A DNA stretch of 43,929 bases, from the IMG/VR virus record IMGVR_UViG_2654588006_000005, positions 1 to 43,929 of that record. The stretch is one strand, 5' to 3'. This document shows positions 4,654-43,929 of the stretch, piece after piece; positions within the stretch are counted from its first letter, which is position 1; each line of letters starts with the position of its first letter. Under the pieces are notes generated by a model. That model ran no database searches and was not told where the DNA came from. It was given only the letters and a program-made list of their open reading frames with translations. The DNA comes from a virus (taxonomy: Duplodnaviria > Heunggongvirae > Uroviricota > Caudoviricetes). A program made the position numbers and the translations under genes.

Positions 4654-4719
4654 AATTACCTCTCGCTTTTCTGCAATAAAAAAGGCGTCATTTCTGACGC
4701 CCGTTATGGGTTATAAAAT

Positions 4720-8202: not shown

Positions 8203-8262
8203 TCCTCACGCTCCATAAACGACAAAACCGCCCGCAGGCGGTTTCACATAAAATGTTTTGCA

Positions 8263-25584: not shown

Positions 25585-25590
25585 TTGCAT

Positions 25591-25616
25591 GAGTTGCCCA
25601 TCGATATGAGCAACTC
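25591..25616. terminator. hairpin between convergent bor and Rz
   Basis: GAGTTGC / GCAACTC 7-bp stem with a 12-nt loop containing ATCGAT; T-rich only on the minus-strand side. Confidence 0.3.
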
Positions 25617-26607: not shown

Positions 26608-26712
26608 GGATATTTATCAGGATTTATCGGTTTCTGAACCCTGGATATGTTTATCTGTCCCGGCCTGTTGAATCAGGCAAGGAATAGTTAAATACAATAG
26701 AGAGGATTGTTT

Positions 26713-26985
26713 ATGGACAATAGCACCATTTCTCTACAGGAGTTGCTCGACTGCATTTCCAGGCTTCGGGATGATGTAAATGCCCTTACTGTCGCATTTT
26801 CATATCTGGCATTCTCAATTCCCAAGGAACAAATGCAACCAACACTGGCATCGCTCCAGCTTGAATCAATCAATCCCAAATGGTCCCAGCAACAACAAAA
26901 TTCTTTCAAGTGGCTGGCGGTATTACTGGAGGAAAAATATGCTGGTGAAATTACCATTTCGGCGGAGTCTTCAGTGAACCAGTAA
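26713..26985 (+). CDS. hypothetical protein (90 aa), antisense to the lysis cassette
   Basis: AGAGGA RBS 6 nt upstream of ATG; protein-like composition; sits in the gap between the endolysin and the DUF1327-like ORF; function unknown. Confidence 0.3.
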   Translation: MDNSTISLQELLDCISRLRDDVNALTVAFSYLAFSIPKEQMQPTLASLQLESINPKWSQQQQNSFKWLAVLLEEKYAGEITISAESSVNQ

Positions 26986-27295
26986 TTCTTCCCGGCAGTT
27001 TTCCTTTGTAGGTTATCCACACACTCTGCGCCTCTAAAATTATGGGGCGCTTTTCCGGCGACTGCTCATCCCCTCCACATAACCCGGTAGCAACATCCAG
27101 GAAGACCTGTCTGATGCTCCTTCTGGCTGCTGCCTCATAAAACTCCAGCGCGGCACCTTCAACACGGTCCAGCGAGATGTCCAGGTCAAAAATTTCACCG
27201 TCAAAGCGTTCTTTGTCCTGTAATGCTAAAGTTACCGTAACTTTATTCTCAAAATTGCGGATCCCTTTCACAATCATTTCATAGTTTTGGACCAT
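26951..27295 (-). CDS. lysis-cassette-associated protein, DUF1327/YdfR-like (114 aa)
   Basis: Located between holin and endolysin as ydfR is in the K-12 Qin prophage; family assignment is from memory only. Confidence 0.55.
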   Translation of the reverse strand: MVQNYEMIVKGIRNFENKVTVTLALQDKERFDGEIFDLDISLDRVEGAALEFYEAAARRSIRQVFLDVATGLCGGDEQSPEKRPIILEAQSVWITYKGKLPGRITGSLKTPPKW

Positions 27296-27299
27296 TATA

Positions 27300-27515
27300 T
27301 TACTCTCCTCTCGCAGCCTTTCTTCTGTCTTCTCTGATTTTGAAGTACAGATTCGTCAGATAAGTCAGAAAGCCCAGAACCAGACTTCCCAGTACACCAA
27401 TCGCAGCCCACTGAGACGGACTAACCTGATCAAGCCATTGTAAAAACCAGTAGCCAGCACTGCCTGCGGAGGTGCCGTAGGCAATGCCTGTTGATATTTT
27501 TTCCATCTGATACAT
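27300..27515 (-). CDS. S: class II pinholin, phage-21 S-type, dual start (71-aa antiholin / 68-aa holin)
   Basis: [71 protein letters not shown] with Met1-x-x-Met4 dual-start motif and two TMDs; pairs with a SAR endolysin. Start is derived from the track frame (plus or minus 1 bp). Confidence 0.8.
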
Positions 27516-27624
27516 ATCCCGCCCCAACAGACCTGTGCTACCGGAAAGAAAAAAGGCCATCAGCAAAACTCTGATGGCCTGAATCACCTTTACCAGTCAT
27601 GTATGAAAAAATACGCACAACCAA

Positions 27625-28608: not shown

Positions 28609-29670
28609 TCACAAAATTGTATTTGCTGATAACATACTGATTTCCTGGATGGTCTGATTAAACCGCTCTGTCTCAAGCTCAACACCTAACGCCCGACGCC
28701 CCAGCGCCATTGCTGCTTTTATTGTGGAACCGGATCCCATAAAGAAATCAGCAACCAGATCGCCGGGTCGACTACTGGCATTGATTATTTGCCTGAGCAT
28801 ATCCGCCGGTTTCTCACACGGATGTTTACCCGGGTAGAACTGAACGGGTTTATGCATCCAGACATCGGTATAAGGCACGGAGACTGATACGGAGAAATAG
28901 CGCCGGAGAGATTTAAACTCATCCAGCAATTCAGAATATTTGCGATTCAGTGAATCATAAGATGCCACCAACTGGTGGTGTGGTTGTTCCAGTTGTTGTT
29001 CCTGAAACTTCTCTGCCGCTATACGGGAAAACAGTGCCTGTAACTTCCGGTAGTCAGCCTCATTCGGCAACTGCCACTGACTGGCACCAAACCAGTGGGA
29101 AACCATATTTTTCTTACCTGTGGCTTCGGCAATTTGTTTTGCCGTTATACCCAGTTCGGCACGAGCATCCCTGAAATACGATATCAGCGGTGCCATTATG
29201 TGCTGTTTGAGTTCCCTTTCTTTTGCCACATAGCCGTCACTTTTGCCGCGATATGGCCCCCGGTAATGTTCAGCAAACAGAACGCGCTCTGTGGCAGGAA
29301 AATATGCGCGCAGACTTTCTTTATTACACCCATTCCAACGTCCGGACGGCTTCGCCCAGATGATATGGTTAAGCACGTTGAAACGTTCACGCATCATGAT
29401 CTCAATATCAGATGCCAGGCGATGCCCACAGAACAGGTAAAGGCTTCCGGCAGGTTTCAACACCCGCCAGAACTGGGCCAGACAGTGGTCCAGCCACTTA
29501 AGGTAATCTTCGTCCCCTTTCCACTGATTGTCCCAACCGTTGGGTTTCACCTTGAAGTAAGGCGGATCGGTAACAATCAGGTCAATGGAATCATCAGGCA
29601 GGGACTGAATAAAATGCAGGCAATCAGCGTTGATTAAATCAATACTGTTTATTTTTACAGTGTTTTTCAT
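28609..29670 (-). CDS. orphan DNA amino-methyltransferase (N6-adenine or N4-cytosine, beta-class; 353 aa)
   Basis: DPPY motif near the N-terminus (LIVTDPPYF) and FMGSGST (FxGxG SAM-binding) near the C-terminus; no adjacent restriction endonuclease gene. Confidence 0.85.
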   Translation of the reverse strand: MKNTVKINSIDLINADCLHFIQSLPDDSIDLIVTDPPYFKVKPNGWDNQWKGDEDYLKWLDHCLAQFWRVLKPAGSLYLFCGHRLASDIEIMMRERFNVLNHIIWAKPSGRWNGCNKESLRAYFPATERVLFAEHYRGPYRGKSDGYVAKERELKQHIMAPLISYFRDARAELGITAKQIAEATGKKNMVSHWFGASQWQLPNEADYRKLQALFSRIAAEKFQEQQLEQPHHQLVASYDSLNRKYSELLDEFKSLRRYFSVSVSVPYTDVWMHKPVQFYPGKHPCEKPADMLRQIINASSRPGDLVADFFMGSGSTIKAAMALGRRALGVELETERFNQTIQEISMLSANTIL

Positions 29671-30880: not shown

Positions 30881-31633
30881 TTATCTCGTCACCTTTCTCA
30901 ATTGTGCTTCAGCGAATGCTTCTTCCTGCCAGCACTTTGTTACCAGTTTATCAATGACGTCTGCATATCCTTTGTACCACTGATAATCAGTCAGGTCTGG
31001 TACCAGCTTCTGGACATGACGTCGTGCCAGTGTGGTCGGTAAACGACTAAACCGGTTTCCATTGCAACGCCCACAAATCTTATAAACAGGCGCGCCATGA
31101 AGCCGGGTTCTTTTTTCATCCAGGACAATGCCTTTACCCTTACACCCTCTGCAAGCCGTGCTGACTTCTCCCTTACCATGGCAATGCTGACATAATTCCT
31201 TCACCCACTCTTCCTTGATAACAGATTCCCCGCTTCTGGAGTGTTTCACCACTTCGCGCAATACACTATGAAATCCAGTACCAGCACAATGCTCACAGCG
31301 AGCCTTACTTGCCGCAGACCTGGAATAATCAGCAAAGGCAAAACTCACAAGGTAAGGGATGATCTGTAACCGGGTTTCTTCACTCAATTTGTTCAATGTC
31401 GGGTTATCCATTGCCATCGCGTAATTGAGCAGACCTTCAATCGCAAACTGAGGATCCTGAACACCAACTTTTGCCAGGAATAAGGCAAACCCAAGCGGTG
31501 CTTTCGACTGCACCATCCCCTGCGCAGCCATCACATCCGTAATCGTTAAACCACCTGAGCCTGTCGCCGGTGCGTCATCGCTCAATTTTGGAGATTTTGG
31601 GGAGTAATATTTTGGTAAGGCTTCAAGGTTCAT
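30881..31633 (-). CDS. Q: late gene antiterminator Q (250 aa)
   Basis: N-terminus MNLEALPKYYSPKSPKLSDDAPATGSGGLTITDVMAAQGMVQS parallels lambda Q; Cys-rich zinc-finger-like region CEHCAGTG...CQHCHGKG...CRGCKGKG. Confidence 0.85.
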   Translation of the reverse strand: MNLEALPKYYSPKSPKLSDDAPATGSGGLTITDVMAAQGMVQSKAPLGFALFLAKVGVQDPQFAIEGLLNYAMAMDNPTLNKLSEETRLQIIPYLVSFAFADYSRSAASKARCEHCAGTGFHSVLREVVKHSRSGESVIKEEWVKELCQHCHGKGEVSTACRGCKGKGIVLDEKRTRLHGAPVYKICGRCNGNRFSRLPTTLARRHVQKLVPDLTDYQWYKGYADVIDKLVTKCWQEEAFAEAQLRKVTR

Positions 31634-31646
31634 GCTCGTTCTCCAC

Positions 31647-32642
31647 TTACGCCAGTACGCCTATTGCCAGCGCATGATCGATAAAACGAAATATCAGCTC
31701 CAGCTGGGAGCCATACATCTCTTCAAATGCCACGGTATCCGCATGCAGCTCGTCGTGATGCTTTCTGCACAAAGGCAACACAAAGAGGTCATGCGCTTTT
31801 GTACCCATTCCACCCTGACCATGGCCTATCAGGTGGTGGGGATCATCAGCAGGCTTTCCACAACATGCACACGGCTGTGTCTTAACCCAGCGCGTGTACT
31901 TTTCATTAACCCAGCGGCGACGTTTTGGGCGTAACATAAAAGACTCCGGCGACTCTGGCTCCACTTTCAGCGCCAGCACCTTTTTCGCTTTATCCTGGAT
32001 AATGCTGGTGGCAGGAACCGAAGGAACAAGGTCACTCTCCCGGGTGACAGACGGCACAACCGGCTTCGGTAATCTCAGTGCCTTACGGGCTGCACTTTCC
32101 GGTAAGGCATCCGCCAGGTCATTACGAACCAGCCACCAGCACAGTTCCGGCATTGTCACTACGTGACTGTCATCAAAACCGAGATCCCGACGCACGACAG
32201 ATAACACCCAGTGGGCACAGTTATCCGTTGCCATTGATTCCAGCCGTTCCGTGAACTGATCACGCAACTGGTTATCGCAGTGCCAACACAGACGAATTGC
32301 GCCCGGCGCGTGTCGCATTGTGGTCATGTTCTCGCTGTGCCAGTCGGAATGAGGCCACTGACAGCCCTTTTCACGAAGTAACCAGCTTTCAAGACATTCC
32401 ACGCCACCAGCACGACGGATCACTGCCTCATTGCGGAACACGGCCCGAACGGCAGGATCATCCGCCAGCGGTTGTGATGCCGCCGGAACGGCACCACTGG
32501 CGAAAGATGAATAACGTTCCGGCTCAGGCTCCAGCAGGACACGCCCCTGCATAAACAGGGGCATCAGCTCTGAACCTGGCCTGAACAATACGATCCCCAT
32601 ACGCGGGGCAATTTCAGGGGTCAGTAGTGCTCTCACGGTCAC
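31647..32642 (-). CDS. Nin-region protein with C-terminal HNH-like Cys/His motif (331 aa; DUF968-like, tentative)
   Basis: CACCGKPADDPHHLIGHGQGGMGTKAHDLFVLPLCRKHHDELH motif; position between rusA and Q. Confidence 0.5.
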   Translation of the reverse strand: MTVRALLTPEIAPRMGIVLFRPGSELMPLFMQGRVLLEPEPERYSSFASGAVPAASQPLADDPAVRAVFRNEAVIRRAGGVECLESWLLREKGCQWPHSDWHSENMTTMRHAPGAIRLCWHCDNQLRDQFTERLESMATDNCAHWVLSVVRRDLGFDDSHVVTMPELCWWLVRNDLADALPESAARKALRLPKPVVPSVTRESDLVPSVPATSIIQDKAKKVLALKVEPESPESFMLRPKRRRWVNEKYTRWVKTQPCACCGKPADDPHHLIGHGQGGMGTKAHDLFVLPLCRKHHDELHADTVAFEEMYGSQLELIFRFIDHALAIGVLA

Positions 32643-32643
32643 C

Positions 32644-33486
32644 TCAATGAACGGTATCGAGCAGCTTTAACAGCTCAGGGAATCGGGATTCGAAGAAATG
32701 CGGCTGCGTCTCGCGCGGATTTGCAGGACTGGTGATGTTCTTGCCGAACATGCAGCCTTTCGCCGTCAGCGACCAGAATTTTTTGATGTTGTTAATCGCG
32801 GTACGGCTGTATCGTTCGCGTTGTTCAACGATCCCCAGCTTCACCATCTGGTGATATGCCTGATTAGCCGTCAGGCGGATACCATACTGTTTCAGCAGTG
32901 CACTCAGCGACAGCGTGGGGCGACTTGAGCCATCAGGCGCGTCAGCAGGAGCATCAATGGCATAGCGCGGTGCCAGATTCGGTAAGCCAACAGCCTCCTG
33001 AAGCTTCTGACAGGCTCCAAGCACTGATGACTTAGACAGGTTTAATTCCCGGCGCATAAAGTCCAGCAGGATCACGCCAGCCTGCATCTTGTCAGCAGCC
33101 TGCCCGGATAATTTTTCCGGTGTGCTGGTTACCATATCGAAAGTACGGATCACCTTCAGATGGAATGACGGGCTGATCCACATTGCATAGGCATACACCA
33201 GTTCCTTGCAGACATACGTTCCTCCATTCCGCCCTTCTATTTTACTTACTGGTTTACTACCCAAATTTTGGGTAGTTTCATTGAATGAACCGACACCCAA
33301 ATTTTGGGTATCGATCAATTCCTGAACCAGCTCAGTAATCTGTTGGCTGGAAAGAAACTTTCCCGGCTCCTTAGTTCTGGCATTTGCACCAGATACAACA
33401 GCAGCCCGATGCAGATCGTTCAGGCTGTAACGCCCATAAGCATCACGACGAACTTCAATACCATCAATGACCATCAGATTATTCAT
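32644..33486 (-). CDS. KilA-N domain protein (putative antirepressor-like, about 280 aa)
   Basis: N-terminus MNNLMVIDGIEVRRDAYGRYSLNDLHRAAVVSGANARTKEPGKFLSSQQITELVQEL typical of KilA-N domains; start at an internal Met of the track ORF. Confidence 0.6.
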   Translation of the reverse strand: MNNLMVIDGIEVRRDAYGRYSLNDLHRAAVVSGANARTKEPGKFLSSQQITELVQELIDTQNLGVGSFNETTQNLGSKPVSKIEGRNGGTYVCKELVYAYAMWISPSFHLKVIRTFDMVTSTPEKLSGQAADKMQAGVILLDFMRRELNLSKSSVLGACQKLQEAVGLPNLAPRYAIDAPADAPDGSSRPTLSLSALLKQYGIRLTANQAYHQMVKLGIVEQRERYSRTAINNIKKFWSLTAKGCMFGKNITSPANPRETQPHFFESRFPELLKLLDTVH

Positions 33487-33505
33487 ACTTCGTTTCTCCT
33501 CTTGA

Positions 33506-33895
33506 TCAGGCGGCTGCACCCGCCGTTTTCTCGTACTTACTGATAGTGATCTCGACCTTCCCTTCCGGGATAACCGGTCCCCACTCCACCAGCATTCTTT
33601 TCACCTGGCTGTCGTCTTCCCACACACCCGCGTGGGTCAGGGCGTCAAACAGCGCCTTGTTATAGTTGTCCAGATCGCGGATCCGGTTATCCGGAGGAAA
33701 CAACACGATCTCCACTGAAGCAGGTGCCGACGTTGGTTTCGGCAGACGACGTAACTGCTCAACTATTGCTGTGCACGCCGCACTCTGGAATTTTCGCCCC
33801 GCCGCGCTTATCAGGCTCTTACCAGCAAATGCCCCTTTGTTGGGGTGTCGCCAGTAGGTGTTCACGCTGGGTGGAAAAGGCAGAATCAGCTTCAT
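33506..33895 (-). CDS. rusA: Holliday junction resolvase RusA (129 aa)
   Basis: RDLDNYNKALFDALTHAGVWEDDSQV motif matches the RusA catalytic region (E. coli RusA: [26 protein letters not shown]). Confidence 0.85.
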   Translation of the reverse strand: MKLILPFPPSVNTYWRHPNKGAFAGKSLISAAGRKFQSAACTAIVEQLRRLPKPTSAPASVEIVLFPPDNRIRDLDNYNKALFDALTHAGVWEDDSQVKRMLVEWGPVIPEGKVEITISKYEKTAGAAA

Positions 33896-34218
33896 ACTTT
33901 CAGCCCCCTCTCATGTAACCAGTGGGCTGCACGCAGCCTGGCGTTTTCCTCACCAGCAAGCAGTGCGCGGATAATCCCGGCCACCTCGCTGTCGTCGTCC
34001 TTCACCGCGGTATGAAGCGTGATGCCCCGGGCCACGCCACGCTTTATCGTGATGACGCCTTTTTTCTCCAGTGCGCGAAGATGCTCCACCGCTGCATTCA
34101 CTGAACGGTATCCCAGCATGGTAGCCACCTCCTGATTGGTTGGCGGGAAGCCACGTTCTTTCTGGTAAGAAATCAGCATATCCAGCACCTGCTGCTGGCA
34201 TTGAGTTAACGTCGTCAT
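33892..34218 (-). CDS. LexA DNA-binding-domain homolog lacking the S24 peptidase domain (about 108 aa)
   Basis: LTQCQQQVLDMLISYQKERGFPPTNQEVATMLGYRSVNAAVEHLRALEKKGVI aligns with LexA [53 protein letters not shown]; no Ser/Lys autoprotease region follows. Confidence 0.65.
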   Translation of the reverse strand: MTTLTQCQQQVLDMLISYQKERGFPPTNQEVATMLGYRSVNAAVEHLRALEKKGVITIKRGVARGITLHTAVKDDDSEVAGIIRALLAGEENARLRAAHWLHERGLKV

Positions 34219-34706
34219 TAAGCCCCCACGTAATTCCCTGACAGATACCACTCTTCACCCGATACAGCGCGCTTGCTGCTTTTCCGTAAACACCGCTCAC
34301 GACGCGCAAGAAAATTGTTTCGCTCTTGCTGGGAGTGGCTTTCACGGAATGCCGCCATCCACACCGTTGCAGCACGACGGTATAAGCCCCTGGACTCCAG
34401 TTCTTCCGCCTGGCGGGTCAGGCACAAAATCACCCGGGGATCGTTAGTGCCGACATAGAAATTGCGCACAGGTCTGGATTCACGAACTGGTTGCGGTTCC
34501 GGCTCCTGCGGTATCTCAGTCAGCCGCGGGAAATGTCTGCGTGTATCCCCTTCACAACGGTGAGCCACACGCCCACTCTGACGTAACTTGCTTGCTGACT
34601 GCAGAACGCGCTGTCGTGAGTAACCTGCAAAAGCATCCGCAATGTCTCCGGAAGTACACCCCGGATGGGCTTCAATGAATTTCTGAACGTCATTCAAAAG
34701 ACTCAT
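34218..34706 (-). CDS. hypothetical protein (162 aa), translationally coupled to the replication initiator
   Basis: ATGA overlap with the upstream gene stop; N-terminal winged-helix-like segment; function unknown. Confidence 0.5.
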   Translation of the reverse strand: MSLLNDVQKFIEAHPGCTSGDIADAFAGYSRQRVLQSASKLRQSGRVAHRCEGDTRRHFPRLTEIPQEPEPQPVRESRPVRNFYVGTNDPRVILCLTRQAEELESRGLYRRAATVWMAAFRESHSQQERNNFLARRERCLRKSSKRAVSGEEWYLSGNYVGA

Positions 34707-35680
34707 GATCCCCCCCTGAATCCTGCCGGGATCTGGCTGTAGTCCACGTTGTCGTAACTGGCTTTGAAGTACGGGTCTTCGCGTTTTTCGGTGTACGTGC
34801 TGACGGACGGCGATAAGCGCAGGGAAAGCTCATCCCATTTTTCCCGCAGCTTCGACGGGCTGAGCACGTTACGGCACCAGAACGGATCGCGGCTGACGCG
34901 GCTGTACATCTCGCAGATTTGTTTGTGAGTACGACCATCCTGCACACACATCAGGCGAATTTCGTTTGCCCATGCTGTCCAGTTCGGTTCTTTGGGACGA
35001 ACCACCTCGCCGTCACATTCGGCGGCCTGCTCGTACAGGGCGATGATTTTTTTCCAGAGCCACTGTGCGCAGGTCAAATCATCCTGCGTTCCCCACTGGC
35101 GCTTTTTAGGGCTGAATACAACCGCATCAGGATGGCGAGTTAAAAACTCCTGTTCAGCCGTCTGCGTGTCCGGTTGCGAAGCGTCCGGACGAGAAGTTTT
35201 TTTATCTGACGGATCATGTTTTGATTTTACTGACGGATCCCCGCCAGATTCTGACGGGTGAAAACCCGCTTTTTTGCCAGATTTCGACGCATCAAATTTT
35301 GACTGGTCAGATTTTGATGCGTCAGATTTTGACTGGTCAGATTTTGATGCGTCAGATTTTGACGGGTCAGAATCTGACAGTTGAGAAAATGCCGCTGCCT
35401 GAAGCTTCGCAACGTTAAGCTGATAAACATTCGACGCATTGCGGTTACCCTGGCGACGCGCCTTACGCGTTAACCAGCCTTCTGCTTCCAGCCGTGCGAT
35501 AGCCGTTCTGACGGTGCTCATCCCCGCGCCAATCTGGCGGGCAATGGTTTCAATTGATGGCCAGCACACACCTTCGTCATTACTGAAATCAGCCAGGCGG
35601 GCCATAATTGCCACGCTGGATAACTTCATGCCTGACGCAGCGCAACCATCCCATACATAGCCGGTTAATTTAGTGCTCAT
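34703..35680 (-). CDS. replication initiation protein (O-like, iteron-binding; N-terminal wHTH, 325 aa)
   Basis: N-terminal HTH region (WPSIETIARQIGAGMSTVRTAIARLEAEGWL); internal (SKSDA/Q)n linker encoded by tandem iterons; position between the cro-like/cII-like genes and the Nin region. Confidence 0.7.
   Translation of the reverse strand: MSTKLTGYVWDGCAASGMKLSSVAIMARLADFSNDEGVCWPSIETIARQIGAGMSTVRTAIARLEAEGWLTRKARRQGNRNASNVYQLNVAKLQAAAFSQLSDSDPSKSDASKSDQSKSDASKSDQSKFDASKSGKKAGFHPSESGGDPSVKSKHDPSDKKTSRPDASQPDTQTAEQEFLTRHPDAVVFSPKKRQWGTQDDLTCAQWLWKKIIALYEQAAECDGEVVRPKEPNWTAWANEIRLMCVQDGRTHKQICEMYSRVSRDPFWCRNVLSPSKLREKWDELSLRLSPSVSTYTEKREDPYFKASYDNVDYSQIPAGFRGGS
35244..35372. repeat. tandem ~15-bp iterons (about 9 copies): putative replication origin inside the initiator gene
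   Basis: Repeats of YCAGATTTTGAYKSG alternating ...GATGCG / ...GACTGG; same arrangement as ori-lambda inside O; adjacent AT-rich stretch. Confidence 0.6.
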
Positions 35681-35689
35681 GACCGACCT

Positions 35690-36028
35690 CTATTTCCCTG
35701 AATTTACGACGAAACTGTTCGAGCGGGCTGAAGCATTCATGCTCATAGCCTTCGCGGAGGTAGATAACCCGTTGTGTTTCCGGTTCCCAACGAATGACTC
35801 TGACGGGCACTCCGTAGTGATCTTTGAACCAGCGGTTAACTTGTTGCAAAGGACTGTCTCCTTCTGCCGGTTGAAATCACCCACAGCCCACTCTGCAAAG
35901 CTGTGGGTTACAATTTCCCTGTCACCTGGTACATTCACCGCATAGCAATACTCCACCTTCGCTTTTCCACCCGGTACAGGAAGCGCAATCAGTTGCGAGC
36001 GACGGTAGTGTGTTGTTAAACTGTTCAT
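35690..36028 (-). CDS. hypothetical protein (112 aa)
   Basis: GGAGA RBS; ATGA start/stop overlap with the upstream YdaT-like gene; no family recognized. Confidence 0.45.
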
Positions 36029-36609
36029 GCGTTAGTTTCTCCACAACCAGAAGCAATCGACGCCACGACGCCCGGAGCTGCACACTCGCGGGCGTTACTC
36101 TTTTCCGGCGCACAAAAAACACGAAATAACAGTGTTAAATGCTCCTGCCACTTCGCCATTACTTGGTAGCTGTTCTCTTCGATTTGCTCACGCTCAGCCT
36201 GGTCAATAACTCCATCAGCAGTTGCCTTGCGTAAGTACTGGGAATGCTTGCCAATCCATTCTATTGACTCCATCAGCCGCTGATTAATGTCACCATTGTC
36301 AATGTCATCAATGTTCACCAGCGGCACAAACACCCCATTACTACGACGCGCTATCGCATCCGTTACATGCCTGGTACCACTGGCATCCTGTAAAACCATG
36401 GCCCACTCAAGTGGAAAAATTTGATCCCCACCGCTACGCAGTCTGTTATGCAATTGATCTTTCGCTGGGGTGATATCATCAGATTTATACAAACCAAGAA
36501 TTTCCGCTGCTTCCTCATAGCCATGAGGTAAATCAGCAATCGTTCTTCGTATTGCTGCCACCAGCCATGCTGGTTGCTTATCAACTTTCCATTCAGGTTC
36601 TTTACCCAC
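36025..36609 (-). CDS. YdaT-like protein (194 aa), cII-position regulator (tentative)
   Basis: Immediately downstream of the Cro/YdaS-like gene, as ydaS-ydaT are arranged in the K-12 Rac prophage; family call from memory. Confidence 0.5.
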
Positions 36610-36637
36610 GGTTCATTCCTCGTTTCTGTGGTTACGT

Positions 36638-36901
36638 TTACGCAGTTGAACCGCTAACTTTTGAATAGCACTCAGGTAATCCATCATTTGGATTGGGGTA
36701 AATATCAGGACGCAGTTCATGAGGGGTCACGGACCAGTTTCCCAACTCACAAAGTTGTAAAACCCGTTCTGACGGGACTTGATTGTTAATTACCCAATTG
36801 GCGACGGATTGAGTGGACTTAAAACCAAAGCGACGGGCTACTTCAGATAAAGACTTTCCCGCAGCCTTTACTGCTTTCTCTGTGTAGTTTTGAGATGACA
36901 T
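36638..36901 (-). CDS. Cro-like HTH regulator (YdaS family, 87 aa)
   Basis: Divergent from the repressor gene; GKSLSEVARRFGFKSTQSVANWVINNQVP helix-turn-helix; AGGAGA RBS. Confidence 0.7.
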   Translation of the reverse strand: MSSQNYTEKAVKAAGKSLSEVARRFGFKSTQSVANWVINNQVPSERVLQLCELGNWSVTPHELRPDIYPNPNDGLPECYSKVSGSTA

Positions 36902-37007
36902 ACCTTTCTCCTCTGAAATTCAGAGGGATGATGCTACTTAAAATAGCAAATTGCAACTACTTAAAATAGAAATGACTAGCGCGTGTGATGTGAGTAATCT
37001 TCTACCT
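36902..37007. promoter_or_regulatory. immunity control region (oR/pR/pRM equivalent)
   Basis: Divergent intergenic region with two direct copies of CTACTTAAAATAG, a 15-bp palindrome CTCTGAAATTCAGAG over the cro-like RBS, and a 19-bp palindrome CTTCTACCTATGGTAGAAG at the repressor start. Confidence 0.55.
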
Positions 37008-37712
37008 ATGGTAGAAGAACAGAAGTATCCAGATTTCGCCAAGAGACTAAACGAATTGATGACAATCAAAGGAATCTCTGTCACTCAACTCAAAAGTCTT
37101 GTGGGCGTTACATATGAAATGGCTCGTCGATACACAATCGGCGCAGCGAAGCCACGTGTCTCTGTCATGAGTAAACTTGCGTTGGCTCTTGGAGTATCAG
37201 CTTCATATCTAGAATATGGTGTTGGAGATAGAGAGGAATGTAAGGAAATGGCAAGCATCCCCAATCCAACAAAGCCCGATGTATACAGGATAGAAGTTTT
37301 GGATCTTAGCGTTAGCGCAGGACCTGGGACCTATATGCTTTCAGACTATGTTGATGTGCTCTACGCCATTGAGTTCACAACTGAACATGCCCGTTCTCTT
37401 TTCGGAAACCGTTCTCAGAATGATATAAAAGTTATGACGGTAAATGGAGATAGTATGTCCCCAACTCTTGTTTCCGGGGATCGATTGTTTGTCGACATTT
37501 CCGTTCGCCACTTCCAGACTGATGGAGTTTACTCTTTCGTTTACGGTAAGACTTTCCATGTTAAACGTCTACAAATGCAAGGCAACAAACTAGCTGTTCT
37601 TTCGGATAACCCCGCCTATGAGAAATGGTACATTGATGAGAAGTCGCAAGATCAGCTTTATGTTATGGGTAAGGCACTGATTCATGAGTCGATTAAATAT
37701 AATCGACTTTAA
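36972..37712 (+). CDS. CI-like prophage repressor, HTH (XRE) + S24 LexA-like peptidase (about 246 aa)
   Basis: HTH segment ISVTQLKSLVGVTYEMARRYTIG; C-terminal S24 motifs (VNGDSMSPT Ser, downstream KR Lys). Start ambiguous: 36972 (MTSACDV) or 37008 (MVEEQK); probably leaderless. Confidence 0.8.
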   Translation: MTSACDVSNLLPMVEEQKYPDFAKRLNELMTIKGISVTQLKSLVGVTYEMARRYTIGAAKPRVSVMSKLALALGVSASYLEYGVGDREECKEMASIPNPTKPDVYRIEVLDLSVSAGPGTYMLSDYVDVLYAIEFTTEHARSLFGNRSQNDIKVMTVNGDSMSPTLVSGDRLFVDISVRHFQTDGVYSFVYGKTFHVKRLQMQGNKLAVLSDNPAYEKWYIDEKSQDQLYVMGKALIHESIKYNRL

Positions 37713-37946
37713 TTAGGCATCTAGCAATCGTTAAAGCAAACGAGCACAGATGATAAAAGATAAGGATAGAAAATCTTTATACAAATTTTATTTGGCACAT
37801 TGGTCCATAAAAATGGATTAACACTGAGCTGTTACCCTAAGTAAGAAAAGATAAAGACCATATGTTATCTTTGGGTGCGTTACTAACACAAAAAAAACCA
37901 AAATAAAACATAAATAATAGACAATTCTATACAACAGGATACGATA

Positions 37947-39032
37947 ATGATTAATGAACGTACTGAAGCGACAGATGGGGTAGCAGATATGATTTCCACC
38001 AATACAAAATATTTAGTATGGAACAACAAAGGTGGTGTAGGAAAAACTTTTCTTACATATAATCTTGCCGTTGAGTTTGCTATATCTCATCCGGATCAAG
38101 ATGTTGTGGTTATTGACTCATGCCCTCAATCAAACGTTTCAGAAATTATTCTTGGTGGCAATGGTACCGGGGAAGAAAATCTAAATAAATTGCGAGACAG
38201 AAATGTTACAATCGCAGGTTATATCAAGGAGCGTTTTAGCAAATCTCCTTTGTCTCGTTTAGGAAATGAATCTTCTTACTTTGTACGAGCCCATGATGTT
38301 AATACAAAAATGCCAGAGAACTTATATATTCTTCCTGGTGATGTCGATCTTGATATCTGTTCACGCTTAATATCTCACATTGGCTCATCCCCAGTAAAAG
38401 AAGCATGGAAGAAAAGCCGATCTTTGCTGGTAGATCTAATAGCATCTTTTGAAGCCGATAAAAACATTTCTGACAGAGCAAAAACATTTTTTATTGATTG
38501 TAATCCAAGTTTTGCCAGCTACACAGAATTGGGAGTAGTCGCGGCAAATAGAATAATTATCCCTTGCACTGCCGATGCTGCATCAATTCGCGGAATAAAA
38601 AACCTTGTTAAACTTATTTATGGAGTGTCTATTGACAAGTCAGAACAAGATGAAATGTTCTTAGATTTCAACAAAGAAGCAAAGCAAAACCTTATCGAAC
38701 TACCTGAACTACACCTTTTCGTACAAAACCGCTCAAGAACTAATGAAAGTGATGCAGCAAAAGCATTCAAATCACATGCAGAAGAGATCAAAAGAATCAC
38801 GGATGACCTGTTAAATACACATCCTCATCTGTTCACAAATGTGGCTACTTTCGAGAGAGTTCAAAATGTCAAAGATGGTAATACTCTTGCAGCAATAATA
38901 AACCATGAGGGATGCCCTTTAAGTAGGCTGCAGCATAAGAGTTACACTATCTATGGTATGGCGACCCAAGCTAATAGAGCACAAATTGAAGCACTAGAAT
39001 CTGATGTTTCAACAGTAGTCAAGTGTCTGTAA
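37947..39032 (+). CDS. ParA/MinD-family P-loop ATPase (361 aa), AT-rich cargo gene at the rex-equivalent position
   Basis: Deviant Walker A WNNKGGVGKT, Walker A' VIDSCPQSN, Walker B FFIDCNPSF; low-GC gene and flanks; same strand and position (downstream of cI) as lambda rexAB. Confidence 0.75.
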   Translation: MINERTEATDGVADMISTNTKYLVWNNKGGVGKTFLTYNLAVEFAISHPDQDVVVIDSCPQSNVSEIILGGNGTGEENLNKLRDRNVTIAGYIKERFSKSPLSRLGNESSYFVRAHDVNTKMPENLYILPGDVDLDICSRLISHIGSSPVKEAWKKSRSLLVDLIASFEADKNISDRAKTFFIDCNPSFASYTELGVVAANRIIIPCTADAASIRGIKNLVKLIYGVSIDKSEQDEMFLDFNKEAKQNLIELPELHLFVQNRSRTNESDAAKAFKSHAEEIKRITDDLLNTHPHLFTNVATFERVQNVKDGNTLAAIINHEGCPLSRLQHKSYTIYGMATQANRAQIEALESDVSTVVKCL

Positions 39033-39068
39033 TACAATAACCATGATTTAGAACGAACATAATTCTCG

Positions 39069-39091
39069 CCCGACCAACCGGTCGGGTTTTA
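39069..39091 (+). terminator. intrinsic terminator after the ParA-like gene (t-imm equivalent)
   Basis: CCCGACC-AACC-GGTCGGG hairpin followed by TTTTAT, 37 nt past the stop codon. Confidence 0.5.
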
Positions 39092-39294
39092 TACTCGTAG
39101 CCTGCTTAATAACACTGTTCCTGACCCGTTGTATCCATAGTTCCCACTATTTTCCCCCAAATTATTACTATCTAATTAACCTAATAATTAAACCAAAACA
39201 AAAGACACTCGATATTTTCTATACGTAACTACGCCACATCACCCCATCTGTGAAAAACCTTTTAATTCATAACGTTATATAGAAAACTAAAAAT

Positions 39295-39376
39295 TAAATA
39301 CACGCTTCTACTTTTTGTTGTTGATTTTTGCTACTTTTAGTAGCATCATTATCTGAACAAACAACAGACTGTTGTT
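39295..39376 (+). promoter_or_regulatory. candidate oL/pL region with operator-like repeats and a 17-bp perfect palindrome
   Basis: CTACTTTTTG and CTACTTTTAGTAG resemble the CTACTTAAAATAG repeats at oR; AACAACAGACTGTTGTT palindrome at 39360-39376. Confidence 0.35.
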
Positions 39377-39781
39377 AACGAAAGGTTGGTTGTAACACGG
39401 CGTATGGCACATGCGTCGTTAGCGGTCTGGGGACGTTAAAGGGGACAATCCACTCCTTGCTCGGGCAAACAAACCAGGTAGCCGGAATGTGCAAGTCAAT
39501 GAGGATGCTGATAAGACGCCTAACCAGCGTGGCGATTCGGTTTGACGCCTGGGAAGAGACCAGGGTGCAACGATGAGGGCATTTATGGAACCGCGACAAA
39601 GTGTGGTGCCGTAACTGGCTAAGTGCTCTCAGCGTTGTGGTGAATGCGCAGGCTGATGCGCGAAAGACATTGCAGCTATTGCGGAAAAGAGCTGTTCGGC
39701 GGGGCAATTAAACGCCCGTGAGAGTCTGAAATAACCGCAAGCCGGAGATCAGCACCGGTCACCACAACAGCCACTGCTTTG
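39377..39781 (+). other. ORF-free, relatively GC-rich structured early-left leader (candidate ncRNA or RNA-based antitermination element)
   Basis: Stops in all three plus-strand frames (longest ATG-initiated ORF about 29 codons); the only track ORF is a non-protein-like minus-strand ORF; ends at a strong terminator. Confidence 0.35.
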
Positions 39782-39827
39782 GCGGTACCAGTTTGTACCC
39801 TTGCTTCCGGCTGGTACCGCTCTTTTT
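39782..39827 (+). terminator. intrinsic terminator within the early-left leader (tL1-like / attenuator)
   Basis: 10-bp perfect stem GCGGTACCAG / CTGGTACCGC with 19-nt loop followed by TCTTTTT. Confidence 0.55.
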
Positions 39828-39916
39828 ACAAAACAGAGAAGAGCATCACCGGACGACGGGCTCATAACCCAATCCATCCGGGCGGCTGCCACCGCAGGTG
39901 TTCTTCTCTGTTTTGT
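39828..39916 (+). promoter_or_regulatory. long-range inverted repeat (15-bp arms, 59-nt spacer) immediately upstream of the first early-left ORF
   Basis: ACAAAACAGAGAAGA ... TCTTCTCTGTTTTGT enclosing a GC-rich segment; 30-50 nt upstream of the GAGGAG RBS of the yfdP-like ORF. Confidence 0.35.
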
Positions 39917-39964
39917 GGAGAAACTAACCGACCTTACAGGGTCGATATGATGAGGAGCAGCAAA

Positions 39965-40327
39965 ATGGCTAGCGAACGCAGTACTGATGTGCAGGCATTT
40001 ATCGGGGAGCTGGACGGCGGCGTATTTGAAACCAAAATCGGCGCAGTTCTCAGTGAAGTCGCTTCCGGTGTGATGAACACGAAAACCAAAGGTAAGGTCT
40101 CACTCAACCTGGAAATCGAACCATTTGATGAGAACCGTGTGAAAATCAAACACAAACTCTCATATGTTCGCCCGACTAACCGCGGGAAAATTTCCGAAGA
40201 AGACACCACCGAAACGCCGATGTATGTCAATCGCGGTGGTCGCCTGACTATTCTGCAGGAAGACCAGGGACAATTACTGACTCTTGCCGGTGAACCTGAC
40301 GGAAAACTCCGCGCAGCAGGTCATTAA
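39965..40327 (+). CDS. hypothetical protein, YfdP-like (120 aa)
   Basis: GAGGAG RBS before MASERSTDVQAFIGELDGG...; 120 aa and position match my recollection of the K-12 CPS-53 yfdP-yfdT cluster; the track ORF starts further upstream but that part overlaps the leader structures. Confidence 0.5.
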   Translation: MASERSTDVQAFIGELDGGVFETKIGAVLSEVASGVMNTKTKGKVSLNLEIEPFDENRVKIKHKLSYVRPTNRGKISEEDTTETPMYVNRGGRLTILQEDQGQLLTLAGEPDGKLRAAGH

Positions 40328-40392
40328 TATCGTTCTTAATTAACTGATTATTTATCTCATCACTGAATATCTTTATATAGTGAGGACTTATT

Positions 40393-41217
40393 ATGTCTCA
40401 GAACTTAGACGCAACCGCAATTAATCAAATCCATGCCCTTATTTCTGCTCAGGGTGTTAATGAAATTATCAGTAAGATTGGTGCCGATGCTGTGGCATTG
40501 CCTGAGAATTTCCGCATTCATGATCTGGAAAAATTTAATTTAAATCGCTTCCGTTTCCGTGGTGCACTTTCCACTGCCAGCATCGATGATTTTACCCGTT
40601 ATTCTAAAGATCTTGCAGATGAAGGCACCCGCTGCTTTATCGATGCCGATAATATGCGTGCCGTCAGTGTGCTTAACCTGGGTACTATTGATGAGCCAGG
40701 TCACGCAGATAACACTGCCACTCTCAAACTGAAAAAGACAGCACCGTTCTCTGCTCTGTTGTCTGTTAACGGCGAGCGTAACTCCCAGAAGTCACTGGCA
40801 GAATGGATCGAAGACTGGGCCGACTACCTTGTGGGCTTTGATGCTAATGGTGACGCCATTCAAGCAACAAAAGCGGCTGCGGCAGTCCGTAAAATCACGA
40901 TTGAAGCAAACCAGACCGCTGATTTTGAAGATAATGACTTCAGCGGCAAACGCTCCCTGATGGAGTCTGTCGAAGCGAAGACCAAAGACATTATGCCAGT
41001 GGCATTTGAATTTAAATGCGTTCCGTTTGAAGGTCTGAAAGAACGTCCGTTTAAATTACGCCTCAGCATTATCACTGGCGATCGTCCTGTACTGGTTCTG
41101 CGCATTATTCAGCTGGAAGCGGTGCAGGAAGAAATGGCTAACGAATTTCGTGATCTGCTTGTTGAGAAATTCAAAGACAGCAAAGTAGAAACCTTTATTG
41201 GTACTTTCACCGCCTGA
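40393..41217 (+). CDS. yfdQ: YfdQ-like protein (DUF2303-type, 274 aa)
   Basis: 274 aa; gene order and lengths (120/274/178/120/101 aa) match the CPS-53 yfdPQRST cluster as recalled. Confidence 0.6.
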
Positions 41218-41344
41218 TTTCATTACTGCAAATGCCCCTGCGGGGGCATTTATGGAAACGTAATTAACTCAATAATCACCGGATGGTGAGGGCTTCCTTT
41301 TACCAGAATTCAGCGCGGTGCAGTGCATATACGTGGAGAACAAA

Positions 41345-41881
41345 ATGTCATTTATTAAAACTTTTTCCGGGAAGCATTTTTATTATGACAAGATAAATAA
41401 AGACGACATCGATATTAACGATATCGCGGTTTCCCTTTCAAATATCTGTCGCTTTGCCGGTCATCTTTCGCACTTCTACAGCGTCGCCCAACATGCGGTT
41501 CTTTGCAGCCAGCTGGTGCCGCAGGAATTTGCTTTTGAAGCGTTAATGCATGATGCAACAGAATCGTATTGCCAGGACATTCCCGCACCACTGAAACGCC
41601 TTCTTCCTGACTATAAACGGATGGAAGAAAAAATAGACGCCGTAATCCGTGAGAAATACGGGTTACCCCCAGTTATGAGTACACCCGTGAAATATGCCGA
41701 TCTCATCATGCTGGCAACCGAACGCCGCGATCTCGGGCTTGATGATGGCTCTTTCTGGCCTGTACTGGAAGGCATCCCGGCAACAGAGATGTTCAACGTG
41801 ATTCCACTGGCACCGGGTCATGCCTACGGGATGTTTATGGAACGTTTTAACGATTTATCGGAGTTACGCAAATGCGCATGA
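41345..41881 (+). CDS. yfdR: HD-domain phosphohydrolase, YfdR-like 5'-deoxynucleotidase (178 aa)
   Basis: HD motif region ...FEALMHDATESYCQDIPAPLK...; 178 aa from MSFIKTF. Confidence 0.65.
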   Translation: MSFIKTFSGKHFYYDKINKDDIDINDIAVSLSNICRFAGHLSHFYSVAQHAVLCSQLVPQEFAFEALMHDATESYCQDIPAPLKRLLPDYKRMEEKIDAVIREKYGLPPVMSTPVKYADLIMLATERRDLGLDDGSFWPVLEGIPATEMFNVIPLAPGHAYGMFMERFNDLSELRKCA

Positions 41882-42234
41882 ATGTTTTCGAAATGGAAGG
41901 GTTTCTTCGCGGGAAATGTGTACCGCGAGATCTGAAAGTGAACGAAACAAATGCTGAGTACCTGTTACGTAAATTCGACGCGCTTGAAGCTAAATGTGCG
42001 GCACTGGAAAACAAAATAATACCAGTGTCAGCTGAACTGCCACCAGCAAATGAAAGTGTTCTGTTATTTGATGCTAATGGAGAAGGCTGGCTGATTGGCT
42101 GGCGTTCTCTCTGGTACACCTGGGGACAAAAAGAAACCGGAGAATGGCAGTGGACATTTCAGGTCGGGGACCTTGAAAACGTCAATATCACTCACTGGGC
42201 AGTAATGCCAAAAGCACCGGAGGCTGGAGCATAA
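41872..42234 (+). CDS. hypothetical protein, YfdS-like (120 aa)
   Basis: Overlaps the yfdR-like stop; 120 aa; Trp-rich C-terminal half. Confidence 0.5.
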   Translation: MRMNVFEMEGFLRGKCVPRDLKVNETNAEYLLRKFDALEAKCAALENKIIPVSAELPPANESVLLFDANGEGWLIGWRSLWYTWGQKETGEWQWTFQVGDLENVNITHWAVMPKAPEAGA

Positions 42235-42539
42235 TGACCACATTTACCAATAAAGAACTGATTAAAGAAATCAAAGAACGAATCAGCAGCCTAGAGGTTC
42301 GAGACGATATTGAGCGCCGTGCTTATGAAATCGCACTCGTATCTCTGGAAGTAGAGCCAGATGAACGCGAAGCCTATGAATTATTCATGGAAAAGCGTTT
42401 CGGTGACTTAATAGATCGTCGGAGAGTAAAAAACGGCGATAACGAATACATGGCATGGGATATGACTCTCGGTTGGATCGTCTGGCAGCAACGAGCTGGT
42501 ATCCATTTTTCAACAATGACACAGCAAGAGGTGAAATAA
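42234..42539 (+). CDS. hypothetical protein, YfdT-like (101 aa)
   Basis: ATGA overlap with the preceding ORF; 101 aa. Confidence 0.5.
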   Translation: MTTFTNKELIKEIKERISSLEVRDDIERRAYEIALVSLEVEPDEREAYELFMEKRFGDLIDRRRVKNGDNEYMAWDMTLGWIVWQQRAGIHFSTMTQQEVK

Positions 42540-42910
42540 TGGAGCCATACAGCCTCACACTCGATGAGGCCTGTCAGTTTCTTAAGATATCCAGACCAAC
42601 CGCCACCAACTGGATACGAACAGGCCGCCTACAGGCAACACGTAAAGATCCAACCAAGCCAAAATCTCCTTACCTCACAACACGGCAAGCCTGCATTGCG
42701 GCGCTTCAGTCTCCGCTGCATACTGTCCAGGTGAGCGCGGGTGATGGCATAACAGAGGAAAGAAAATGTCACTCTTCCGCAGAAATGAAATATGGTATGC
42801 CTCGTATTCGCTCCCGGGCGGGAAACGAATTAAGGAATCTCTTGGCACAAAGGACAAGCGGCAAGCTCAGGAGTTGCACGACAAGCGAAAAGCAGAACTC
42901 TGGCGAGTAG
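42539..42910 (+). CDS. xis: excisionase-like protein, P22-type (about 123 aa), overlapping int
   Basis: [38 protein letters not shown]... HTH typical of excisionases; TAATG overlap with the upstream stop; 3' end overlaps the int start by about 145 nt. Confidence 0.55.
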
Positions 42911-43929
42911 AAAAGCTAGGGGATTTACCTGATGTCACTTTTGAAGAGGCCTGCCTAAGATGGCTTGAGGAAAAAGCTGATAAAAAATCTCTCGATTCAG
43001 ATAAAAGCCGGATTGAGTTCTGGCTTGAACATTTTGAGGGTATAAGGCTTAAAGATATCTCGGAGGCAAAGATTTACTCTGCTGTAAGCAGAATGCATAA
43101 CAGAAAGACGAAAGAAATATGGAAACAGAAAGTTCAGGCCGCCATCAGGAAAGGTAAAGAACCGCCTGTTTATGAACCAAAGCCAGTATCAACTCAGACA
43201 AAGGCAAAGCATCTTGCCATGATAAAGGCCATTCTCCGTGCTGCAGAACGCGACTGGAAGTGGCTGGAAAAAGCGCCTGTCATCAAGATACCAGCGGTCA
43301 GAAACAAGCGAGTCAGATGGCTGGAAAAGGAGGAAGCAAAACGCCTTATTGATGAGTGCCCCGAACCACTGAAATCTGTCGTCAAGTTTGCGCTGGCAAC
43401 TGGTCTGAGAAAGTCGAACATCATAAATCTGGAATGGCAACAAATCGACATGCAGCGACGAGTTGCCTGGGTGAATCCAGAAGAGAGCAAATCAAACCGC
43501 GCCATTGGTGTGGCGCTGAACGATACCGCCTGTAAAGTGTTGCGTGATCAAATAGGCAAGCATCACAAATGGGTGTTTGTACATACCAAGGCGGCTAAGC
43601 GAGCAGATGGAACATCAACGCCTGCGGTCAGGAAGATGCGCATCGACAGCAAGACATCATGGCTATCAGCTTGTCGTCGTGCAGGAATTGAAGATTTCCG
43701 TTTCCATGACCTCAGACACACCTGGGCAAGCTGGCTGATCCAGTCAGGCGTCCCATTATCTGTGCTTCAGGAAATGGGCGGATGGGAGTCCATAGAAATG
43801 GTTCGTAGGTATGCTCACCTTGCGCCTAATCATTTGACAGAGCATGCAAGGAAAATAGACGACATTTTTGGTGATAATGTCCCAAATATGTCCCACTGTG
43901 GAATTATGGAGGATATAAAGAAGGCGTAA
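42766..43929 (+). CDS. int: tyrosine integrase, P22-type (387 aa)
   Basis: C-terminal catalytic region ...[47 protein letters not shown]... (R...HxxR...Y); 387 aa as P22 Int; stop codon is the last 3 bases of the window. Confidence 0.9.

Follow-up and report, generated by a model that had tools for sequence, protein, structure and literature searches.

The yfdPQRST genes in the predicted early-left operon of a lambdoid prophage of Escherichia coli

The genes yfdP, yfdQ, yfdR, yfdS and yfdT (b2359-b2363) have been annotated since the genomes of Escherichia coli K-12, where they lie in the prophage CPS-53 (KpLE1), and of phage SfV (orf32-orf28). The genes themselves, their occurrence in SfV-type phages, one functional study, and a lambdoid phage class with no recombination genes and rich in Chi sites (2025) are all already published. 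The same cluster is found at 39965-42539 of a viral DNA of 43,929 nucleotides, IMG/VR record IMGVR_UViG_2654588006_000005 (the whole of which is here called the window). Its recognition there, made in a preliminary description from the letters of the DNA, is correct and largely ordinary. What the window shows in addition is yfdPQRST together with operators, a predicted promoter region and a structured, invariant leader, all of which have been lost in K-12. Gene identity and operon layout are certain. We put at about even the chance that the cluster is an accessory operon, transcribed from the left promoter (pL) of a lambdoid phage without a recombination (Rec) module, which damps initiation at the host oriC on induction.

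The functional study was made in K-12 (Noguchi & Katayama 2016, PMC4776307). A multicopy fragment carrying yfdP-T suppresses the lethal over-initiation of hda-185. The minimal suppressing set is yfdQ and yfdR together with either yfdS or yfdT, with yfdP dispensable, and the same plasmids reduce initiation in wild-type, dnaAcos, seqA, DARS and diaA backgrounds. DnaA pulls YfdR from extracts; purified YfdR binds domain I of DnaA in a Phe46-dependent manner and competes for DnaA with DiaA and DnaB; and extracts containing YfdQRST block oriC replication in vitro. YfdR is in this respect like the DnaA domain I binders DiaA, Bacillus subtilis SirA and Dps, since Phe46 is the DiaA/DnaB site and overexpression lowers initiation (PMC4776307). 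It differs from them in being an unrelated HD phosphohydrolase that in vivo depends on YfdQ and on one of YfdS and YfdT. The authors suggested a role in growth of the ancestral phage, by comparison with lambda P, a precedent for a phage-encoded inhibitor of DnaA, and noted the SfV homologues (PMC4776307). The preliminary description had left four of the five proteins without a function. These initiation and DnaA data overtake that statement, and the cluster itself is therefore a candidate host-takeover function.

The second relevant study is a survey of enterobacterial lambdoid phages, 68 of 314 of which have no Rec module (Zheng, Casjens, Davidson, Amundsen & Smith 2025, PMC12315714). Most of these Rec-less phages (62 of the 68) carry at least eight Chi sites in the active orientation and at most six in the other, and it was proposed that they use host RecBCD by way of abundant Chi. 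A yfbR/yfdQ/yfdP cluster is common in early-left operons, and is neither confined to Rec-less phages nor universal in them. The survey deemed a recombinase hidden in this cluster unlikely, because phage ArgO145 carries the cluster together with a full, four-function Rec module (PMC12315714).

In the window, the five genes lie on the plus strand at 39965-40327 (yfdP, 120 residues, with an AGGAG Shine-Dalgarno sequence 7 nt before the ATG), 40393-41217 (yfdQ, 274 residues), 41345-41881 (yfdR, 178 residues from the ATG; a GTG at 41318 would make 187), 41872-42234 (yfdS, 120 residues) and 42234-42539 (yfdT, 101 residues). The five consecutive, partly overlapping open reading frames (ORFs) of the preliminary description are thus exact in the ORF list. 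According to that list, yfdR and yfdS overlap by 10 nt, yfdS and yfdT by 1 nt, and the yfdT stop and the excisionase ATG by 1 nt, and xis and int overlap as well. There is thus no gap between reading frames from yfdR through to int, their stops and starts overlapping or abutting.

The proposed match in size and order to yfdPQRST passed a check of similarity at 96-99 % protein identity. Global alignment to MG1655 (reference positions 2464000-2480000) gives 119/120 identical residues for YfdP (99.2 %), 272/274 for YfdQ (99.3 %), 176/178 for YfdR (98.9 %), 119/120 for YfdS (99.2 %) and 97/101 for YfdT (96.0 %), so that each protein differs from its K-12 counterpart by one to four residues. The DNA of 39946-42592 is collinear with K-12 2473585-2476231 at 98.1 % identity, and lengths, gene order, orientation and intergenic spacing are equal to those of K-12. 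The domain content is PF27127 (YfdP) in YfdP, DUF2303 in YfdQ, HD in YfdR and DUF551 in YfdS. Judged by this agreement, the five genes are orthologues of K-12 yfdP-T and not a chance likeness.

CPS-53 shares the genes but has lost the DNA corresponding to window 35447-39946, that is, part of the O-like replication gene, cII, cro, cI, a ParA-like gene, the left operator and promoter, and the leader. At the joint, the equivalent of window 34215-35447 (the yfdN/yfdO side) is fused to 39946, 19 nt before yfdP (NC_000913.3 about 2473586), and torI/intS stand in place of the SfV-type xis/int of the window. By this comparison CPS-53 derives by a precise deletion from a phage resembling that in the window. 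Because the deletion takes the 5' part of the O-like gene, K-12 yfdO is a truncated replication gene, and because it takes pL and the leader, K-12 yfdP-T have no natural control region. The overexpression data therefore come from a strain without the natural promoter and leader, and K-12 expression and phenotypes tell little about natural regulation. The genes in the window appear to be the intact, repressor-controlled originals of K-12 yfdPQRST.

Location in an early-left operon, which the preliminary description had assumed, is borne out by operator-like sequences. Two 17-mers, TGCTACTTAAAATAGCA and a close variant, sit between cro and cI (36932-36971) and recur in inverted form on the plus strand at 39306-39349, where the copies form an inverted repeat of 44 nt that is 80 % complementary. 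The pattern CTACTTWWWRTAG, with at most one mismatch, occurs at only four sites in the 43.9 kb (7 strand matches, against 0.21 expected). We infer that 39306-39349 is the left operator and promoter (OL/pL). Because the motif of the cro-cI operators recurs just upstream of them, the yfd genes would belong to the pL operon, and together with xis and int they would make up the whole of this early-left, delayed-early operon under repressor control: its content is yfdP-yfdQ-yfdR-yfdS-yfdT-xis-int, with no further genes. No gene for an N-like antiterminator was found between pL and yfdP. The repressor that presumably controls pL is of CI type, with a helix-turn-helix (HTH) and an S24 peptidase domain (36951-37712, plus strand; Pfam Peptidase_S24 2e-16; HTH_3).

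At the far end of the operon are the excisionase gene xis (42539-42910, plus strand; PHROG 2907 excisionase 1e-45; Pfam HTH_17) and a tyrosine integrase gene of SfV type (42766-43929, plus strand), an ORF of 387 residues whose 3' end is the end of the window. The two genes are 97 % identical in DNA to those of SfV. In an identical chromosomal copy the integrase is annotated as 'integrase' or intD and adjoins a tRNA-Arg gene. It follows that the window is a prophage, whose sequence runs from the tail-fibre end through to int.

Between OL/pL and yfdP there is an untranslated leader of about 600 nt (39350-39964, plus strand), without a credible ORF. It was compared across related loci. The mosaic joints at which they enter common sequence lie at about 39376, 39628 and 39780, and the last 185 nt of the leader (39780-39964) accompany yfdP in nearly all of them. 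Since no joint is later than about 39780, at least these 185 nt belong to the module. For the stretch 39770-39970 the folding energy is -92.2 kcal/mol, where shuffles average -59.1 (z -6.8). It contains, on the plus strand, a hairpin at 39781-39821 followed by TCTTTTT, which is terminator-like; directly after it, at 39823-39920, a second hairpin with a stem of about 25 bp; and a small hairpin before the yfdP ribosome-binding site. The second hairpin is unchanged in 49 sequence variants, including three loci in which the first has been swapped for unrelated sequence, and these 49 offer no variation in it that could be compared for covariation. A search of 36500-43929 against Rfam at E up to 1 gave no match, which places the leader hairpins in no curated RNA family. 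Termination control and an RNase III site are candidate roles.

The upstream part of the leader is different in kind, since in 39350-39790 neither a structured RNA (folding z -0.96) nor a credible small ORF was found. A minus-strand ORF of 110 residues at 39375-39707 was considered as a gene and rejected: it has a TTG start, it is of low complexity and rich in Arg, Ser, Thr and Leu, and PGAP leaves it unannotated in the identical chromosomal copy. The approximately 400 non-coding nucleotides at 39375-39780 are richer in G+C than the AT-rich DNA to their left, and are common to about 32 related loci irrespective of immunity type.

The preliminary description reported no exo, bet, gam, erf or recET homologue. 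This holds for the searches made here: tblastn of the whole window found no match to Exo, Bet, Gam and Kil of lambda, Erf, Arf, Abc1, Abc2 and Kil of P22, RecT and Exo of ArgO145, or Erf, Exo and the single-strand DNA-binding protein (SSB) of CP2, a query set that did not include Rac RecE and that very divergent families could escape. Among the early-left, immunity, early-right and lysis ORFs, Pfam and PHROG scans with hidden Markov models (HMMs) turned up a single recombination-related gene, that for the Holliday-junction resolvase RusA (33506-33895, minus strand; Pfam RusA 7e-15; PHROG 34 1e-57). The structural-region ORFs (1-23000) were covered by tblastn and not by HMMs. Counts of genes were made in 66 related loci, these being IMG/VR E. 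coli viral contigs with an identical YfdQ and enough flanking DNA, and none of the 66 has a reference Rec protein within 10 kb.

Nine Chi sites occur in the window, against 2.03 expected on both strands from dinucleotide shuffles, an enrichment of about fourfold, and eight of the nine are on the minus strand (26182, 29785, 30097, 32133, 32404, 33586, 36558 and 42040), with one on the plus strand (32004). As the structural genes are encoded there, the minus strand counts as the conventional top strand, and its eight sites are in the putatively active orientation. Seven of them are at a distance of 2.6-13 kb from the presumed cos end, in the stretch bounded by the lysis genes and cro, and the eighth (GCTGGTGG, 42040-42047) is inside yfdS. 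The window has lambdoid gene order, no gene for a single-strand annealing protein (SSAP), exonuclease, SSB or anti-RecBCD protein in the scans just described, and Chi at 8 versus 1 toward the right end. The phage thus appears to fit the class with no Rec module and high Chi, and would be expected to rely on RecBCD. It resembles the members of LLS type in layout, in absence of Rec genes and in having a yfbR/yfdQ/yfdP-type cluster in the early-left operon (PMC12315714). It differs from them in being a resident prophage whose eight active-orientation Chi are the lower bound of the class, against 20 in LLS and 16 in mEp460. The latter is a viable relative that carries yfdPQRS without an annealing protein, and its Chi are distributed 16 versus 4, which is likewise within the limits that define the class.

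The preliminary description stated that the five genes replace the Red/Gam/Kil block. By position they do. Like Red/Gam/Kil of lambda and Erf/Arf/Abc/Kil of P22, they lie between the immunity region and xis-int and would be transcribed from pL. They differ from these blocks in having no sequence relation to them and, for YfdP and YfdQ, no fold relation, and the window is without the N-type antiterminator gene. As to function, the evidence is against a replacement, because the P-Q pair coexists elsewhere with such genes, lying beside RecT-Exo in ArgO145 and near Erf-Exo-SSB in CP2. No known SSAP superfamily (Redbeta/RecT, Erf, Rad52-like, Sak4) resembles YfdQ or YfdP in sequence or fold. Since the pair shares the ArgO145 genome with RecT and that of CP2 with an Erf-like protein, it was rejected as a substitute SSAP. 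YfdQ was also rejected as a Gam-like anti-RecBCD protein, which would conflict with the Chi enrichment and with the complete four-function Rec module reported for ArgO145.

How the operon might act can be proposed from the layout and the K-12 data. When the repressor is inactivated, transcription from pL would cross the structured leader and the five proteins would be made. YfdR would bind DnaA domain I at Phe46, outcompeting DiaA and DnaB, and host initiation at oriC would be shut down, with YfdQ and either YfdS or YfdT as helpers in vivo and YfdP not needed. Damping of host initiation might then free replication resources for the phage. The weak phosphatase activity of YfdR on deoxynucleoside monophosphates (dNMPs) would probably be secondary, and recombination-dependent replication would be left to host RecBCD and Chi, to RecA and to the phage RusA. 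Shutdown of host initiation is, on the K-12 overexpression data, the joint activity that appears best supported, and a role in phage growth is what these data would suggest. In the window no helicase loader of lambda-P, DnaC or DnaB type was recognised by the Pfam and PHROG scans beside the O-like initiator (34703-35680, minus strand; HTH_36; PHROG 391), and such a loader-less replication module may be linked with the competition of YfdR and DnaB for DnaA.

Several points weigh against this proposal. The phenotype appears only on multicopy overexpression in K-12, outside the phage context; deletion of K-12 yfdQRST has no effect, and the authors allow for an overexpression artefact; and YfdQ, YfdS and YfdT show no tight binding to YfdR or DnaA (PMC4776307). 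YfdP, the most constant partner of YfdQ, is dispensable for the phenotype. In phages of Vibrio, Xanthomonas and Pseudomonas the P-Q pair is found amid genes for exonucleases, SSAPs and SSBs, which speaks for a broader role in DNA transactions than inhibition of E. coli DnaA. Finally, the window has one Chi per 4.9 kb, the same density as the E. coli chromosome (quoted in PMC12315714), so that the Chi count alone is weak evidence in a resident prophage and the Chi argument is carried by the strand bias and by the free-phage relative mEp460.

The distribution of the genes bears on these points. Among 5,426 complete E. coli genomes, 3,721 contain a match to a stretch of 3.1 kb, often in degraded prophages, and in 1,686 the match covers 80 % of it or more; PGAP names the products yfdP, yfdQ, yfdR (5'-deoxynucleotidase), 'phage protein' or YfdS, and yfdT. 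At the DNA level the module is 97-99 % identical in phages PhiR29/PhiR49, Kati, SfV and SfIV, and 97-98 % identical over yfdP-yfdS and most of yfdT in Stx2c phages and 2H10. In mEp460, YfdQ is 99.3 % identical and the early region matches the window at 96 %. The five genes are not a fixed module, as the preliminary description had them, since YfdP, YfdQ and YfdR are each present in all 66 related loci, YfdS in 47 and YfdT in 34; Ea22-, EaA-, EaD- or EaE-like genes are found in some. The cluster thus divides into P-Q(-R), a conserved core, and S and T, which vary.

Beyond these close relatives, a Klebsiella locus has cI, YfdP, YfdQ (58 % identity), YfdR (63 %), variable genes, xis and int, and no Rec genes. 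ST64B (YfdQ 57 %, YfdR 67 %) has a similar layout, with YfdP identified by BLASTP and a DEDD exonuclease nearby. In a second E. coli allele (YfdQ 66 %), P-Q is followed by an unrelated protein of 207 residues and YfdR is replaced. A tblastn search with YfdQ matched 184 phage records, among them Stx2a phages and phages of Vibrio, Xanthomonas and Pseudomonas, and every YfdQ phage locus that was opened had a gene for a YfdP homologue of 115-135 residues directly upstream of yfdQ. The homologues were identified by hhalign at 100 % in ArgO145, 99.9 % in VvAW1, 99.4 % in both Pseudomonas pAN and Vibrio 24E30.2, and 99.2 % in Xanthomonas CP2. The adjacent pair is kept in seven phage lineages.

The neighbours of the pair are as follows. 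In ArgO145 the order is Kil, RecT, exonuclease, a gene of 195 codons, P-Q; in Xanthomonas CP2 it is P-Q, a gene of 511 codons, an Erf-like protein, exonuclease, endonuclease, SSB; in Vibrio 24E30.2 it is a YqaJ-domain protein, a DnaQ-like exonuclease, P-Q, SSB; in VvAW1 it is a DEDD exonuclease, two small genes, P-Q, one gene, SSB; and in pAN it is P-Q, two genes, a 3'-5' exonuclease and a YfdR homologue (40 % identity). A canonical annealing protein was not seen within the stretch of Vibrio 24E30.2 that was examined. The pair looks to be an old, mobile two-gene unit which lives among genes for DNA-end processing and single-strand binding and which coexists with annealing proteins.

It is worth adding that in Vibrio 24E30.2, a podophage, the upstream protein has 620 residues, with an N-terminal YqaJ-type exonuclease domain and 470 further residues, and that a protein with a domain like Tad2, an anti-defence protein against Thoeris, is encoded three genes after yfdQ. 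The genes noted are at record positions 3064-4923 and 7712-8218.

These neighbourhoods suggest two related alternatives to the initiation-damping operon. The first, which we regard as possible though improbable, is that YfdP-YfdQ is an ancient two-gene cassette of lambdoid, Vibrio, Xanthomonas and Pseudomonas phages and forms a machine for DNA transactions, with YfdQ a large homo-oligomer that works beside exonucleases, SSB and annealing proteins. If so, P-Q could couple host RecBCD/RecA recombination or the supply of DnaB to replication in Rec-less, Chi-rich phages, and the K-12 initiation phenotype would be a side view of its activity. The second, which is the main rival though unlikely, is that YfdP-YfdQ, with or without YfdR, is a cryptic accessory machine of recombination or repair, in which a large YfdQ oligomer acts on DNA ends, single-stranded DNA or host recombination proteins. 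In Rec-less phages it would then be the phage's own input to recombination-dependent replication.

Several observations agree with such an accessory machine: conservation of the adjacent pair in the seven lineages; its position near RecT-Exo (ArgO145), Erf-exonuclease-SSB (CP2) and the DnaQ-like exonuclease, SSB and YqaJ genes (Vibrio 24E30.2); the DEDD exonucleases nearby in ST64B, VvAW1 and pAN; and the reported sensitivity of K-12 yfdQ mutants to methyl methanesulfonate (MMS) and H2O2 (PMC4776307). The YfdQ family (Pfam DUF2303, 2e-92) has many invariant Arg, His and Asp residues, and PDB entry 9o7m, 'YfdQ Protein', is the solved structure of a homologue of 274 residues that matches the family profile at E 2e-57. 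The entry has 36 copies of it; C is given as the example chain, and A and B may be another molecule. No paper was found in a literature search on 9o7m, DUF2303 or the YfdQ structure. The AlphaFold2 model of YfdQ has a predicted local distance difference test score (pLDDT) of 75 and gave no full-length fold match in the structure library searched, 9o7m being absent from its Foldseek matches. YfdP, to which precomputed annotation of 99 % identical proteins assigns the Pfam family PF27127 'YfdP', is predicted as a helix packed on a three-stranded meander (pLDDT 71), and a structure search with its model gave no informative match.

The arguments on the other side are that an anti-RecBCD role would clash with the Chi enrichment, and that the neighbourhood is circumstantial, since phage early operons are generally rich in genes of DNA metabolism. 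Co-occurrence with complete Rec modules excludes only the strong form of the proposal, a substitute recombinase, and in this Zheng et al. (PMC12315714) concur. What remains of interest beyond the published work is the P-Q pair, always neighbours across several bacterial orders and usually among recombination or replication genes, and the invariant leader structure. If P-Q acts on DNA or on replication or recombination proteins, this would shed light on replication in a large group of temperate phages that have no recombinase of their own.

A further alternative, raised in the preliminary description and doubtful, is that the operon alters nucleotide pools or works against host defence, with YfdR dephosphorylating dNMPs and its four partners targeting or regulating YfdR, or inhibiting defence. 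Acting on nucleotide pools, it would resemble Dmp of phage T5, an HD 5'-deoxynucleotidase that clears the products of host-DNA breakdown. The HD phosphohydrolase named in the preliminary description is indeed present and its motif is intact: H50, H69-D70 and D119 lie in blocks conserved with the HD protein Atu1052 (structure 2gz4, E 3.7e-14). YfdR matches PHROG 318, 'deoxyribonucleoside 5' monophosphate phosphatase', at 4e-109; related families bear the same name, and PGAP uses '5'-deoxynucleotidase'. YfdR-type HD proteins accompany P-Q in relatives as distant as a Pseudomonas phage. K-12 YfdR is reported to be a structural homologue of E. coli YfbR with weak dNMP phosphatase activity (PMC4776307, citing Zimmerman et al. 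2008), and it shares with YfbR the H...HD...D motif and the PHROG annotation.

The differences from YfbR are that the nucleotide affinity of YfdR is reported to be much lower, with its function termed elusive (PMC4776307), that YfdR has an additional protein-binding role, and that it falls below the curated cut-offs of Pfam YfbR-like (23.1 against 25.9 bits) and the NCBIfam 5'-deoxynucleotidase PRK03826 (19.1 against 122). By these scores it is best placed in a separate HD subfamily, PHROG 318. Furthermore, unrelated genes substitute for YfdR in some P-Q loci, and the phage is without the host-DNA degradation functions that would create a flood of dNMPs. None of the five proteins matches a PADLOC defence-related model, and the suggestion of a nucleotide-pool or anti-defence module finds no direct support.

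The partners add little to this picture: NCBIfam gave no match for YfdP, YfdQ, YfdS or YfdT. YfdS has a C-terminal DUF551 at 22.1 bits (cut-off 22), a portable domain that is also found in Ea22 variants (PMC10834534). YfdT matches PHROG 660 at 5e-30 and has no known domain. YfdS and YfdT were considered as paralogues, which would explain their interchangeability in K-12, and this found no support (BLASTP E 0.32).

It is very improbable that the genes mainly serve the lysogen, kept for tolerance of oxidative, acid or DNA-damage stress. Such a role would account for their persistence in cryptic prophages and in two thirds of E. coli genomes, and it agrees with their retention in K-12 despite deletion of the adjoining immunity region and with the reported rise in H2O2 sensitivity on deletion of CPS-53, yfdQ or yfdS and in MMS sensitivity on deletion of yfdQ (PMC4776307). 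Against it, intact genes downstream of repressor operators and a terminator-like hairpin should be silent in a lysogen, the genes also occur in apparently lytic Vibrio and Xanthomonas phages, and a common family of prophages will make any of its conserved genes frequent.

The window as a whole has a lambdoid order of tail, head, terminase, lysis, Q, nin (RusA), O-like, cII, cro, cI, pL operon, xis and int. On the minus strand there are lysis genes (24484-27587) and genes for a DNA methyltransferase (28609-29670), a Q antiterminator (30881-31633), a DUF968/HNH protein (31647-32642), a KilA-N protein (32644-33519), a protein with a LexA DNA-binding domain (33892-34251), a PerC-like protein (34218-34706), a CII-like activator (36025-36609) and a Cro-like repressor (36638-36901). 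The window is an SfV/mEp460-type lambdoid prophage of E. coli. SfV, SfIV, mEp460, 2H10, PhiR29/PhiR49 and Kati have the same or closely similar cI, yfdPQRS(T), xis and int, and no Rec genes. They differ at the distal end of the operon, where Ea22-like, DUF551 and exonuclease genes take the place of yfdT in mEp460, and between cI and yfdP, where SfV has orf33, 2H10 has nothing, and the window has a ParA-like gene.

This gene (37947-39032, plus strand) encodes a ParA/MinD-like P-loop ATPase of 361 residues. It is low in G+C (37-40 %), ends at a strong terminator (39068-39087), and lies between cI and the inferred OL/pL, which would be within the immunity region, at the place of rexAB in lambda. 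Its probable expression in the lysogen makes it a candidate for exclusion or defence. With PADLOC, the ParA-like protein and Xis gave no more than noise-level matches. The gene is present in 5 of the 66 related loci, and distant ParA relatives near cI are mentioned by Zheng et al. (PMC12315714).

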